A stretch of DNA of 64,000 bases from Escherichia coli. GTDB lineage: Bacteria; Pseudomonadota; Gammaproteobacteria; Enterobacterales; Enterobacteriaceae. Each line of letters opens with the position of its first letter. Position 1 is the stretch's first letter. Location: the NCBI RefSeq assembly GCF_050920415.1, contig NZ_CP169309.1. One strand, given 5' to 3'. Shown in pieces: positions 3,440 to 54,984 of the stretch. The notes below the pieces were generated by a model. It saw only the letters and a list, made by a program, of their open reading frames with translations, did not search any database and had not been told where the DNA came from. A program made the translations under genes and the position numbers.

Positions 3440-3470
3440 TTACCTAAAATAGCCTTTTGATTTCCAATAA

Positions 3471-3509
3471 AAAACCGCCTCAGTTCTTTCACCAGAACAG
3501 GCGGTTTTT
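3471..3509. terminator. bidirectional intrinsic terminator hairpin (yebY / RyeA)
   Basis: 10-bp perfect stem AAAACCGCCT...AGGCGGTTTT flanked by A/T runs on both sides. Confidence 0.6.
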
Positions 3510-3596
3510 AACATTTAAGCTGATGACCACCACGCTTTTTATTGACCATTTTGCACGCAAACTGGAAAACCTGGCGTCGTCATCTATTCTTAAAGG

Positions 3597-49769: not shown

Positions 49770-50117
49770 TCACAAGCTACGTAGCCAGTCGGCCAGCACC
49801 AGCGCATGGTTCTGCGTGGTGTTTTTTGCTGAGTAGAGCAGGGTCAGCGGCTGTTTTTTGGCGATGTCTGCCAGCCGCTTTCCTTCTTGCTCGTGTTGCG
49901 TCAGTTCTGCAAGATATTGCTCGCGAAAGGTTGCAAAATCGACGACTTCGCCGTGAAAGGCTTTGCGCAGTTCCGTTGACGGCGTGATTTCTTTATCCCA
50001 CTCATCAAGGGCTAAATCGGTTTTTTTGATACCGCGTGGCCAGAGGCGGTCGACCAGTACGCGATAACCATCGCTCTGTTCAGCCGGATCATAAACGCGT
50101 TTGCACTGAATATTCAT
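49770..50117 (-). CDS. yeaO: DUF488 protein YeaO
   Basis: ORF 49770..50138; start at MNIQCKRVYD... gives 115 aa. Confidence 0.85.
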   Translation of the reverse strand: MNIQCKRVYDPAEQSDGYRVLVDRLWPRGIKKTDLALDEWDKEITPSTELRKAFHGEVVDFATFREQYLAELTQHEQEGKRLADIAKKQPLTLLYSAKNTTQNHALVLADWLRSL

Positions 50118-50171
50118 CGTATTTGTTCTCCCTTTCACGCATGATTTGTCACGTCACTATAGCACCGGATA

Positions 50172-51353
50172 TTAGCGAATTTCTTTGTCTCTCCCGGCGC
50201 AAAGTCCGAAAATCGCCATCAGTAGTGAAAGTATTGCAACACCCATCAGTGGTACGGACCAGTCACCGTTAGCATCGTGTATTTTACCCATCAGTGGCGG
50301 CCCACAGGCTGCCAGCAAATACCCGACGGATTGTGCCATCCCCGAGAGTGCCGCCGCCTGATGCGCAGAACTTGCCCGCAGACCAATGAACGTCAACCCC
50401 AGTATCATTGTTGCGCCGGAACCAAAACCGAAAAGCAGAGTCCAGGTGATCGCGTGTGCTGGCATAAAGCAGAGCCCAACCGCGCCCACTGCGCACATCA
50501 AGGCAACGAACGCTGCAATACCACGCTGATCTTTCACATGATGTAAGAAAAGTGGGATCAGCAAGCCGGGAGCTGCTGTGGCTAGTTGCAGCAAACCATG
50601 CAGTGAACCCGCCTGTGCTTCGCTATAGCCGTGACTGATGAGGATCGCCGGAAGCCAGCCAATAATCACGTAATAGACCAGTGAGTTGATCCCAAGAAAC
50701 AATGTCACCTGCCAGGCAAGCGGCGAACGCCAGATACCCCGAGTATGTAAGGCGCGTGAGGTACTCAAATTTGCATGTTGTTGACTTCGCCACTGTGGCA
50801 GCCATAAAAAAAGAGCCAGCAGAGGAAAACACATCAGCATGAGCAACGCGCCTTGCCAGCCAAAACCGTTCAAAGCCAGCGGCACTACCATAGCCGATCC
50901 CAGTGCCGCCGCAGCTCCCATTGTCAGGGAATATGCGCCGGTAAGTCTGGCGACGGAATGAGGGAAATCGCGTTTAATTAATCCTGGCAGTAAGACATTG
51001 CCTAATGCAATCCCACCGCCAATGACCGCTGTACCGCCAAATAATAAGTAAGGCGAAGGGAGAGAGCGAATTGCAATACCAGCACAGATCAAAAGTAACG
51101 CGGCAAACAGGCTACGTTCCATACCAAAACGTCGCGCCACCGGGGCGGCCAGCGGTGAGATTAGCGCAAAGGCTAATAATGGCAGGGTGGTCAATAAGCC
51201 GGTTTGCGCCGTCGTTAGCGAGTAAGCGGAACGAATCGTATCCAGTAACGGTGCTGCGCCGGTAAAGGTGACGCGTAATGTTGTGGCAATCATCAGAATG
51301 CCAGCGATAAGGACAATCCTGTTTTTACCGCTTAATGAAGTTGAACAGGTCAT
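50172..51353 (-). CDS. nimT: MFS exporter NimT
   Basis: ORF 393 aa, 12-TM MFS. Confidence 0.9.
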   Translation of the reverse strand: MTCSTSLSGKNRIVLIAGILMIATTLRVTFTGAAPLLDTIRSAYSLTTAQTGLLTTLPLLAFALISPLAAPVARRFGMERSLFAALLLICAGIAIRSLPSPYLLFGGTAVIGGGIALGNVLLPGLIKRDFPHSVARLTGAYSLTMGAAAALGSAMVVPLALNGFGWQGALLMLMCFPLLALFLWLPQWRSQQHANLSTSRALHTRGIWRSPLAWQVTLFLGINSLVYYVIIGWLPAILISHGYSEAQAGSLHGLLQLATAAPGLLIPLFLHHVKDQRGIAAFVALMCAVGAVGLCFMPAHAITWTLLFGFGSGATMILGLTFIGLRASSAHQAAALSGMAQSVGYLLAACGPPLMGKIHDANGDWSVPLMGVAILSLLMAIFGLCAGRDKEIR

Positions 51354-51449
51354 ATGCTTCTCATTGTCACAAACGAGGCTGTACCTTACCGTTTTTATTG
51401 TTATGTTGAATCAAGCTAAAATGACAAAATATCGCTAAATTCTGACAAA

Positions 51450-52271
51450 ATGATGCACAGGTTGAATCTCAATGGCTATGAACCCGACCGACACCATGAA
51501 GCCGCGGTCGCATTTTGTATTCACGCCGGAACGGATGAGTTAACCAGTCCTGTACATCAGCACCGCAAAGGGCAGCTGATACTGGCGCTACATGGTGCAA
51601 TTACCTGTACGGTGGAAAATGCGTTGTGGATGGTGCCGCCGCAATATGCGGTTTGGATACCGGGAGGGGTGGAACATAGCAATCAAGTGACAGCTAACGC
51701 TGAACTCTGTTTTTTGTTTATAGAGCCCAGCGCAGTGACAATGCCGACAACATGTTGCACATTGAAAATATCGCCCTTATGCCGGGAATTAATTTTAACC
51801 CTGGCAAACAGGACGACGACTCAGCGTGCTGAGCCGATGACCCGCAGATTAATTCAGGTCCTGTTTGATGAACTCCCTCAGCAGCCACAACAACAGCTGC
51901 ACCTGCCCGTTTCTTCTCATCCTAAAATCCGCACGATGGTGGAGATGATGGCGAAAGAGCCCGTTGAGTGGGGCTCATTGGGGCAATGGGCTGGCTTTTT
52001 TGCGATGAGTGAACGCAATCTTGCCCGGCTGATAGTGAAAGAGACGGGGTTGAGTTTTCGCCAGTGGCGTCAGCAGTTACAGCTGATTATGGCGCTTCAG
52101 GGATTAGTGAAAGGCGATACTGTACAGAAAGTTGCTCATACGCTGGGGTATGATTCAACAACGGCCTTTATTACTATGTTTAAGAAAGGCCTGGGGCAAA
52201 CGCCAGGCCGATATATTGCGGGATTAACTACTGTTTCCCCACAATCAGCGAAACCAGACCCGCGGCAATAA
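51450..52271 (+). CDS. nimR: AraC-family regulator NimR
   Basis: ORF 273 aa; cupin-like N-domain and AraC HTH C-domain. Confidence 0.9.
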
Positions 52272-52674
52272 GCGGGCCAACCGGTACGCCGCGAAACAGC
52301 GCCACGCCCAAAACAGTGCCCACCAGCAGCCCGGCGACCAGTTGCGGCTGGCTGCCCATTAACGTCACGCCGCGCCCACCTAGCCAGGAGACAATAACGC
52401 CTACTGCAATTGCCACCAGCGATTTCCAGTTCAGAAACGAGTGAATCAGGGTTGAGGGCGGTAGCGTCCCGCTGGCGATGGGGGCCATAACGCCAATCGT
52501 CAGAATGATTATCCCGATACTTAGCCCCTGTTTTTCAATCCACGGGAAAAAGGTGCTTAACGGTGTGACGCGGACAATGATTAACACCAGAATTGAAACG
52601 GCCACAGTGGTGTTATGACTGATAAAGCCCAGCGCAGCTAACCCGAGCAGGATCAGCAAAGTGACATCAAACAT
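52228..52674 (-). CDS. yeaL: UPF0756 membrane protein YeaL
   Basis: ORF 148 aa; 3' end overlaps nimR 3' end by 44 nt. Confidence 0.85.
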
Positions 52675-52842
52675 CGTGGTTTCCTTGCCAAAAAATAATA
52701 AGCCTGCTTACTTTACGCTTGCTGCAGGAAGGAAGTAGAAAATCTTTACGTTTTTTGCATAAAAAATCAGGCGAACTGTCATCAAACTGCCATTTGTACA
52801 CGCTATCAATAACGTGAAAACAGTTATCTCCCGGGGCATACC

Positions 52843-52947
52843 ATGAACGATCAAATGTTCGTTGAGACACTGATTATCACGTCATCGTTTTTTGTTATTG
52901 CTGTTGTGCTGGTTTTGTCCGTTCTGCTTATTGAACGGACAGGCTAG
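52843..52947 (+). CDS. yoaI: small membrane protein YoaI
   Basis: 34-codon [37 protein letters not shown] read by eye; not in ORF track. Confidence 0.7.
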
Positions 52948-53451
52948 TTACGCAGTGCGGCGGAAATTGACCAGTTCTGGTTGCGCAATGCGCAAATAAT
53001 CCGCAGTTTTCAAAATAACGGATTTATTCAGCATGCCTGCATTAAAGGCGATTTCATCGAATCGCTCGAAGAGCAATGGGTCGGCGACCAGTTTGAGTTT
53101 TGGATGGAAGCTGAAAGGGGGGATCGCGCCGAAGACACAGCCTGTGAGTTCATCGACTTCCGCCGGGCTGGCCAACGAAGCGCGTAATCCGCCTATATGG
53201 CTGGCGAGTTGGCTCAGATCGGCCTGTTGATCGGCCGCGAGGATCGCCAGAACATGTTGATTTACACCATTGCCTTTGACTTTACATACCAGTGCCTTAG
53301 CCCCCTGGCCTAAAGCGGTGCCACGAATTTCTGACACCGCTTCACATTTACCTACCGCTTCATGGGTAACGACGCGGAAGTCAGCACCTTCTTGTGATAA
53401 TAAAGCGATTAACCGCTGATGCGTCACGCTTCCTTTAGCCATTTCAGTCAT
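52948..53451 (-). CDS. yeaK: YbaK/ProX-family aminoacyl-tRNA deacylase
   Basis: ORF 167 aa. Confidence 0.9.
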   Translation of the reverse strand: MTEMAKGSVTHQRLIALLSQEGADFRVVTHEAVGKCEAVSEIRGTALGQGAKALVCKVKGNGVNQHVLAILAADQQADLSQLASHIGGLRASLASPAEVDELTGCVFGAIPPFSFHPKLKLVADPLLFERFDEIAFNAGMLNKSVILKTADYLRIAQPELVNFRRTA

Positions 53452-53493
53452 TTCATGCTCCTGAGATTACAAGCAAACAACCACAGAAGGTTA

Positions 53494-54984
53494 TCATGAA
53501 CGGCTGTTTTTGTTCTGCTTATTGACATATAAACGCTCATCGGAAGCTTTATATGCATCATGTAACGTATCGTTTTCTTTCATCGCGTAAATACCGGAAG
53601 AGAAGCCGATCTCTTTCTGAGGCGCGATATGTTGCAGACGTTTTTCGATACGTTCAGGCAGTTGTGCTGCAATTTGCGGCGTCGAATCGACAAGAATGAT
53701 GCAGAATTCATCGCCACCGAGTCGGATGGCATAATCACTTTTACGAATCGACTGTTTAATCGCCTGAGCTAATAACGTAATCGCTAAATCCCCCTCCTGA
53801 TGACCGAGGGTGTCATTTATTTGCTTTAACTTGTCCATGTCAATTGCAATAAACATCACCGAAGAACCGGATTGCACCAGTTTCTGCAACCGCTGCTCCA
53901 GTTCAGGGGTTAAAATTTTGCGATTATACAGTCCAGTCATCGCATCACTAATATTTTCTCGCGACACGTTTTGGTATAAACGGAAGTGCATCCGGACCAT
54001 ATTCAGCAAAATTAACGCCGTCAAAATCCAGAACAGAACGCTTTTCCACGAAGACGTGATAAAGTAAAGAATATCAATGGATAACGAGACACGAATACCG
54101 CCCGGTAAGTCATGGACGTAACTGACATACTGGAACAGATTATCTTCGCTCTGGTTGATGATAATGTCGCGCCCTGAATCTGTATCAGTTAGCGTGACAT
54201 TGAGAAAACGCCAGAGGAGAGGGCGGTCATGAGTGTAAAAGATATTCCGCAGATTGTTTTTGTTAATATCCAGCAGCACAATCCCTTTTAGCTGCCCTGC
54301 GACATATACCGGCGTCAGCAAACTCATCACGTTCTGTTTAGTACGCTGATCCTGGTAAATGCTCGATAATACGGTACGCCCGGTAAATACCTTTTCAATA
54401 TCTTTGCGATCGATGCCAATACTTCCTGACTGCAGGAAGGACCAGTTATTCATCGCAAAGTACTCAACATTAACCGGCTCATAAAAATAGACATAGCGGT
54501 CATTGAGATCGAGATAATAGTGAAATTTCTCTTCGGCCATTCCAAGACCTGAACCGTAATCATCCTGGTGGCGGTTGCCTTCCACTGCCTGATCAAAAGC
54601 GGGTAATAGTGCTGCAGCTTCCACAATTGTGTCGCAGTCAGTGGATGCGGTTTGTAGTGTGCCGCGTAAGCCCGGGTATTTATGGGCAGTCAGGTTTAAG
54701 CCATGGGTATTATTGGCAGACTCAAAAGCCTCGCAGATGGCGCGCCGCTGTTCTGGCGACACTTCCGACTGCTCAGCAGCGAGAGCGCGCATCACATGCG
54801 CGGCAATACTCTGATTCTGATACTTATCATAAAGAAAGGAGGAATCTGCTCTCTGCACGATATAGCGCAGATAGGCACTCATTGCTCTGTCGCTGGCGAC
54901 AAGTTCAAAAATAAGGAAGGAAGATGTCAGCACAATGACACTTGCGGCGATAAAATGCCGGAGCATTCTATGGTGCAATTTCAT
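53494..54984 (-). CDS. dgcJ: membrane-anchored diguanylate cyclase DgcJ
   Basis: ORF 53494..55164; start at MKLHHRMLRHF... gives 496 aa; canonical GGDEF (RLGGDEFCII). Confidence 0.9.
   Translation of the reverse strand: MKLHHRMLRHFIAASVIVLTSSFLIFELVASDRAMSAYLRYIVQRADSSFLYDKYQNQSIAAHVMRALAAEQSEVSPEQRRAICEAFESANNTHGLNLTAHKYPGLRGTLQTASTDCDTIVEAAALLPAFDQAVEGNRHQDDYGSGLGMAEEKFHYYLDLNDRYVYFYEPVNVEYFAMNNWSFLQSGSIGIDRKDIEKVFTGRTVLSSIYQDQRTKQNVMSLLTPVYVAGQLKGIVLLDINKNNLRNIFYTHDRPLLWRFLNVTLTDTDSGRDIIINQSEDNLFQYVSYVHDLPGGIRVSLSIDILYFITSSWKSVLFWILTALILLNMVRMHFRLYQNVSRENISDAMTGLYNRKILTPELEQRLQKLVQSGSSVMFIAIDMDKLKQINDTLGHQEGDLAITLLAQAIKQSIRKSDYAIRLGGDEFCIILVDSTPQIAAQLPERIEKRLQHIAPQKEIGFSSGIYAMKENDTLHDAYKASDERLYVNKQNKNSRS

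Follow-up and report, generated by a model that had tools for sequence, protein, structure and literature searches.

Pairs of convergent genes whose coding sequences overlap at their 3' ends are well described in E. coli, in which 58 such overlaps have been counted (Lillo and Krakauer, 2007; PMC2174442). Among convergent overlaps of at least 5 nt the 123:132 phase is the commonest (49%), and the usual origin of convergent overlaps is a mutation in a stop codon (PMC2174442). A rho-independent terminator is located inside the coding sequence of the partner in 19 + 2 of the 58 E. coli overlaps, about a third (PMC2174442). At the level of the transcripts, ExcludonFinder lists yeaL-nimR among 165 convergent excludons present in at least half of 58 RNA-seq data sets from MG1655, and overlapping predicted terminators were reported for 146 of the 165 (PMC12288877). 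The overlap between nimR and yeaL is already known, as it is present in the reference annotation and in this catalogue of overlapping transcripts, and belongs to a well-described class. The product of nimR has been characterized experimentally and is an autoregulated repressor of the AraC family, with the spacer between the divergent genes nimR and nimT as its single target (PMC5934670). A literature search on the function of YeaL returned nothing useful.

The stretch of E. coli DNA analyzed here (64,000 nt, referred to as the window) contains these genes in the following arrangement:

51450..52271, + strand: coding sequence of nimR (yeaM), 273 aa, with stop codon TAA at 52269-52271 (ORF list, Pfam, RefSeq)
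52228..52674, - strand: coding sequence of yeaL, 148 aa, with stop codon TAG at 52230-52228 (ORF list, Pfam DUF441)
52228..52271, both strands: stretch shared by the nimR and yeaL coding sequences, 44 nt (raw sequence)
50172..51353, - strand: nimT (yeaN), encoding a 2-nitroimidazole exporter, divergent from nimR

The 44-nt overlap proposed in an earlier sequence-only reading is borne out by the ORF list and the raw sequence. Its description as the last 14 codons of each gene is roughly right, since the overlap takes in, for either gene, 13 whole sense codons, two bases of the 14th and the stop codon. The phase, read from the sequence, is 123:132, with position 1 of the nimR codons opposite position 1 of the yeaL codons, position 2 opposite position 3, and position 3 opposite position 2. 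RefSeq gives identical coordinates for both genes in strain MFDS1022581, which is 100% identical over the 1.5-kb nimR/yeaL region. This region is present in 5,411 of 5,426 complete E. coli genomes, and 5,408 of the 5,426 match the 131 nt spanning the overlap with at least 95% identity. The same overlap is annotated in K-12 MG1655 (yeaL, b1789, 1874352..1874798; nimR, b1790, 1874755..1875576), where the overlap sequence is identical to that of the window.

YeaL is an inner-membrane protein of the DUF441/UPF0756 family, and its Pfam match spans residues 7-145 of 148 and covers the full profile to its last position. For comparison, 80 yeaL loci were taken from one-genome-per-species collections with YeaL as the query, and nimR and nimT were then located in these. 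In all 80 loci YeaL has 148 aa and its stop codon is at a constant position, consistent with a yeaL end that would be fixed under normal selection at the protein level. NimR shows the features of the AraC/XylS family, a C-terminal double HTH and an N-terminal cupin-like ligand-binding domain (HTH_18, 1.5e-18, residues 180-255; HTH_AraC, 2e-8; AraC_binding, 3.4e-5). Both NimR and YeaL are conserved across dozens of genera in the related loci, and nimT travels with the two genes in most Enterobacteriaceae. Because HTH_18 ends at residue 255, the overlap covers only post-domain residues of NimR (260-273). The part of nimR beyond the domain can be divided as follows:

52215..52268, + strand: C-terminal tail of NimR, residues 256-273, outside the HTH and variable in length and sequence among species
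52242..52271, + strand: lineage-specific extension of nimR, codons 265-273 and the stop codon, with codon 265 (CAA) at 52242-52244

Past the end of the HTH, nimR continues for 18 further sense codons to the first in-frame stop. The chance that a random frame stays open for 18 codons is (61/64)^18, or ~0.42, and the nimR/yeaL overlap is no more than chance would give.

The end of nimR is variable among species. We counted the overlap in 58 species with an intact convergent nimR followed by nimT in the geometry of E. coli, scanning from the start codon, and found the nimR stop at 13 different positions, with overlaps ranging from -181 to +45 nt:

45 nt: 1 species
44 nt: 13 species of Citrobacter; the E. 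coli window has the same overlap (14 loci in all)
20-21 nt: 4 species
17 nt (commonest): 27 species, including Klebsiella, Enterobacter, Raoultella, Kluyvera, Leclercia and others, as well as a divergent Escherichia (locus L004)
6 nt: 2 species
0, -1, -4 and -5 nt: 8 species
-122, -127 and -181 nt (true intergenic gap): 3 species

Some overlap with yeaL is present in about 46 of the 58 species and missing from about 12 (0 to -181 nt). Where the overlap is 17 nt (27 species), NimR measures 264 aa (263 in four). Homologues in which one of the proteins ends earlier had been named in the sequence-only reading as a sign of a mis-called stop. Such homologues of NimR do exist, but it is these species that carry an extra stop codon, and the stop in E. 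coli is not mis-called. The C-termini in relatives point the same way, since an overlap of 17 nt with yeaL is still present in most of the species in which NimR is shorter.

We regard it as likely that the nimR/yeaL arrangement is an ordinary tail-to-tail overlap, brought about by drift of the nimR stop codon and with transcription ending inside the partner genes. The 44-nt form can be related to a single position in YeaL. Codon 265 of nimR is complementary to the last two bases of YeaL codon 144 and the first base of codon 145; an isoleucine at residue 145 (ATx) gives the nimR triplet TAA/TGA, and a valine (GTx) gives CAA/CGA. In line with this, Ile145 is paired with TAA/TGA in 27/27 loci with the 17-nt overlap, and Val145 with CAA/CGA in 14/14 loci with the 44-nt overlap. 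If the widespread 17-nt state is taken as ancestral, a change of YeaL Ile145 to valine (A to G) in the last helix would have turned the nimR stop TAA into CAA in E. coli and many Citrobacter, and NimR would have been lengthened by nine residues as far as the next stop. That next stop is formed opposite YeaL Leu135 (CTT/CTC) and Ile136. The Leu135 codon is CTT/CTC in all 14 loci with the 44-nt overlap and CTG in 22 of the 27 with the 17-nt overlap. This pattern may reflect some selection for a short NimR, so that the length of the tail is perhaps not fully neutral; shared ancestry could equally account for it. Across yeaL codons 134-142 the third-position entropy is 1.36, compared to 1.22-1.40 outside the overlap, and as these third positions are the second positions of the NimR tail codons, the tail appears to be unconstrained. 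E. coli NimR can probably do without its last nine to fourteen residues, and the tail would simply run to the first in-frame stop that chance provides in the antisense of yeaL.

The sequence-only reading also saw no space for terminators at the overlap. This argument finds no support, because a terminator can be placed elsewhere than between the genes, and a terminator-like hairpin with a T-run is located inside nimR codons 244-254. A terminator scan of the yeaL strand gave GGCCTGG-CGTTTGCC-CCAGGCC followed by TTTCTTAAAC at 52209..52178, comprising two elements:

52188..52209, - strand: GC-rich hairpin GGCCUGG-CGUUUGCC-CCAGGCC, within nimR codons 247-254, 7 bp, -14.1 kcal/mol
52179..52187, - strand: T-rich tract UUUCUUAAA, 3' of the hairpin and opposite nimR F244-K245-K246

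The hairpin starts 18 nt past the yeaL stop codon and has a 7-bp stem with 6 GC pairs and an 8-nt loop. Together with the T-run it shows the sequence features of an intrinsic terminator shortly 3' of the yeaL stop, and the 3' end of yeaL is predicted at 52179-52187, corresponding to approximately 1874839-1874847 on the + strand of K-12. The scan identified the same site in Citrobacter youngae (L010), with GGCCTGGCGTTTGTCCCAGGCC followed by TTTTTTGAAC, and in Salmonella diarizonae (L019), with the hairpin followed by TTTTTTAAAC. The T-tract in Citrobacter and Salmonella reads UUUUUU(G/A)AA, a TTTTTT run; the U-tract of E. coli is interrupted (UUUCUU).

Additional support comes from synonymous sites, which were compared in 22 nimR sequences of Escherichia, Citrobacter and Salmonella. 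The codons that encode the stem are nearly frozen (G247 GGC in 21/22, L248 CTG in 22/22, P252 CCA in 21/22 and G253 GGC in 21/22), and the three loop codons vary freely (entropy of 1.69, 0.99 and 1.93). A codon entropy of 0.28 or less is shown by only 5 of the 104 conserved nimR codons of four-fold or higher degeneracy, and four of these five are stem codons (hypergeometric, about 1e-6). The same codons drift in the 27 species of the Klebsiella/Enterobacter group (entropy 0.97-2.3), where neither a hairpin nor a scan match was found at this site; as the hairpin is absent there, yeaL must end otherwise in this group. The hairpin and U-tract are therefore probably the intrinsic terminator of yeaL, specific to the branch of Escherichia, Citrobacter and Salmonella, and yeaL transcription would terminate at this site in nimR codons 244-254, as suggested by the sequence pattern and the conservation of the synonymous sites. 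Other observations count against it: compared to dinucleotide shuffles the folding energy of the hairpin is not significant by itself (z-score -0.66), among random synonymous recodings 4.6% reach a fold as good as that of the hairpin, and the U-tract of E. coli is interrupted. In the supplementary Term-seq tables of Adams et al. (2021), yeaL, nimR and yeaM have no entry and K-12 positions 18743xx-18748xx are without a 3' end, either of which could be explained by low expression or by incomplete tables.

A possible, if rather unlikely, alternative is that the hairpin does not terminate yeaL, and is instead a structure that stabilizes the nimR mRNA or causes pausing, or a by-product of codon preference or of Dcm/very-short-patch repair at two CCWGG sites. 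The palindrome folds on both strands, with -16.6 kcal/mol on the + strand, and the T-run lies directly 3' of the stem on the - strand only; the + strand continues with GAUAUAUUG or GUUAUCUG. The stem is essentially invariant and shows no compensatory changes, and its three departures break pairs, so that covariation does not speak for a terminator, nor does any 3' end in the supplements of Adams et al. (2021). The sole variant that distinguishes the strands (L012, with GGT) keeps a G-U pair only on the + strand, in agreement with a role in the nimR mRNA. With respect to codon preference, GGC and CTG are indeed preferred codons, but CCA is a non-preferred proline codon and is nevertheless kept in 21/22 sequences. 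The stem does contain two CCWGG sites; the other CCWGG sites in nimR are unconserved, being kept in only 1-7 of the 22 sequences, and on these grounds Dcm/very-short-patch repair was rejected as the cause of the stem conservation. The free drift of the same codons in the Klebsiella/Enterobacter group and the location of the site at a typical distance 3' of the yeaL stop likewise argue for the yeaL terminator.

For nimR, the scan for a hairpin with a T-run found no intrinsic terminator on the + strand after 52271. The hairpin within nimR cannot serve as the nimR terminator because it is located upstream of the nimR stop codon, and it also lacks the second U-tract of a bidirectional terminator, the + strand past the hairpin being GATATATTG in E. 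coli or GTTATCTG in Citrobacter, and the site being returned by the scan for a single strand. The region that follows nimR is:

52272..52371, + strand: first 100 nt past the nimR stop codon, antisense to yeaL, with C 0.41 and G 0.28, a possible zone of Rho-dependent termination

It is possible that nimR is terminated by Rho within this C-rich, G-poor antisense of yeaL. The base composition would suit Rho, and nimR transcription would probably end there through the action of Rho or through the collision of polymerases.

Antisense overlap of both mRNAs, which was also predicted in the sequence-only reading, stands. The coding sequences overlap, so the transcripts do as well if both genes are transcribed, by at least 44 nt, and the pair is catalogued as a convergent excludon of MG1655. 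With a yeaL end near 52181 and a nimR transcript reaching at least 52271, the mRNAs would share a complementary stretch of roughly 90 nt or more when the two are produced together.

Such complementarity raises the question of whether the arrangement is a selected excludon, in which yeaL would be silenced when nimR, derepressed by nitroimidazole-type compounds, is transcribed, or vice versa, via head-on collision of polymerases and cleavage of the mRNA duplex by RNase III. We consider this improbable. The pair is part of the convergent excludome of MG1655 in at least 50% of the 58 RNA-seq data sets (PMC12288877), but by definition every overlap of coding sequences scores as an excludon. The order yeaL-nimR-nimT, with 3' ends that overlap or nearly abut, is kept in about 55 species, which belong to more than 20 genera; the overlap's length is not conserved (-181 to +45 nt), however, and in several lineages the genes are separated by a true intergenic gap. 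Constraint at the nucleotide level acts on the embedded hairpin, which would place the whole 3' UTR of yeaL antisense to nimR, features that would suit such regulation. Against this, nimRT is deleted beside an intact yeaL in several Escherichia species, and no functional link of YeaL to NimR or NimT is known, the literature on yeaL being empty. A more specific version, in which the location of the terminator within nimR is maintained to ensure pairing of the two mRNAs at all times, and in which derepression of nimR would switch off YeaL or the reverse, tying YeaL to the drug-efflux response of NimR and NimT, appears to us quite doubtful.

The weakest explanation, an annotation artefact in which one of the stops would be mis-called and the real proteins would not overlap, is hardly credible: it can draw on the shorter NimR homologues (264 aa in 27 species, 263 in four) and on the about 12 species without overlap, but E. 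coli nimR has no in-frame stop before 52269, stop codons, unlike start codons, leave no choice to gene calling, more than 5,400 genomes share the sequence at 95% identity or higher, the YeaL stop does not vary among the 80 loci and its C-terminus matches DUF441 to the last position of the profile, and the species with a shorter NimR mostly keep the 17-nt overlap with yeaL. Both open reading frames and both stop codons are real in E. coli.

The preferred reading thus remains an ordinary overlap that arose by drift of the nimR stop codon. Several further observations were made in the surroundings of the locus. Within 4 kb, nimR/yeaL is one of three consecutive tight convergent pairs, all of which are in the ExcludonFinder table of MG1655 (PMC12288877); the other two are:

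52843..52947, + strand, and 52948..53451, - strand: yoaI and yeaK, with 0 nt between the stop codons
49494..49748, + strand, and 49770..50117, - strand: yoaF and yeaO, 21 nt apart

An Rfam scan of positions 50000-54000 gave a lone sub-threshold match to JUMPstart (52439..52468, + strand), antisense within yeaL, which is probably due to chance (21.5 bits compared to a gathering score of 35, E = 0.21).

Among the related loci, E. albertii, E. whittamii and other Escherichia (L005-L008) lack nimR and nimT, and yeaL is followed by yeaO on the same strand. In Escherichia sp. MOD1-EC7003 (L003:2472-2620) a remnant of nimR is present, in which an internal deletion joins the 3' end to codons 2-42. In E. 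coli ZH142 (L002:3151-4581) an IS1 element truncates nimR after 58 codons, and the region from yeaL to part of dgcJ is missing. Citrobacter koseri carries an apparent nimR pseudogene (L034:3447-4180), the frame of which ends after about 185 residues (56% identity over residues 17-176), and a hairpin-like sequence beside yeaL is still partly present. In Kosakonia, Phytobacter and related genera (L031, L035, L037-L043, L045, L053, L069 and L077; bases 3445-3570) another convergent gene on the opposite strand, apparently encoding a membrane protein, takes the place of nimR. The 3' end of this gene is a few bases from the yeaL stop, so that yeaL is tightly tail-to-tail there too. Two loci are likely to result from contamination or mislabelling: a locus labelled Chryseobacterium sp. 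18061 (L080) is an enterobacterial yeaL-nimR-nimT locus with a YeaL 88% identical to that of E. coli, and a metagenome-assembled genome labelled Raoultella (L011) has a Citrobacter-like locus.

Taken together, the nimR/yeaL overlap is of little importance beyond housekeeping, and is typical of its class in phase, origin and the placement of the terminator. The details added here are minor, and consist of the coupling between Val/Ile in YeaL and the nimR stop, the 17-nt state as the ancestral one, and the near-invariance of synonymous sites in the embedded hairpin. The locus does illustrate neatly how a conservative exchange of Val and Ile in one protein shifts the stop codon of the gene on the opposite strand. 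It also offers a testable candidate for the yeaL terminator in the nimR coding sequence, which is visible as frozen synonymous sites, and effects on yeaL are to be expected when nimR is recoded or deleted.

How the locus relates to known systems can be summarized by three comparisons. Bidirectional intrinsic terminators between convergent genes (SEnd-seq; bioRxiv 10.1101/2022.10.23.513370) share with nimR/yeaL a palindromic GC-rich hairpin between or within convergent units, and head-on polymerases as a possible aid to termination; the nimR/yeaL hairpin differs in having a T-run on the yeaL side only and in being located upstream of the nimR stop. Excludons (Sesto et al.; PMC12288877) are likewise opposed neighbors with overlapping transcripts, and the pair is listed in the convergent excludome of MG1655, but they are defined by mutually exclusive expression via interference or RNase III, whereas yeaL-nimR is known by the overlap of its transcripts alone. 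In addition, classical excludons overlap through long UTRs, and nimR and yeaL do so through the coding sequences themselves. The closest match is provided by the convergent pairs of Lillo and Krakauer, with which nimR/yeaL shares two real genes on opposite strands, a 3' overlap in the 123:132 phase, an origin by stop-codon mutation with 3' extension of one partner, and a candidate rho-independent terminator inside the coding sequence of the partner, a feature of 21 of the 58 E. coli pairs. Nothing essential differs, except that the overlap of 44 nt is longer than the very common 4-nt overlaps, and the peculiarity of nimR/yeaL within this class is that the shift of the stop codon can be traced to a single base, which is at the same time the Val/Ile switch in the partner protein.
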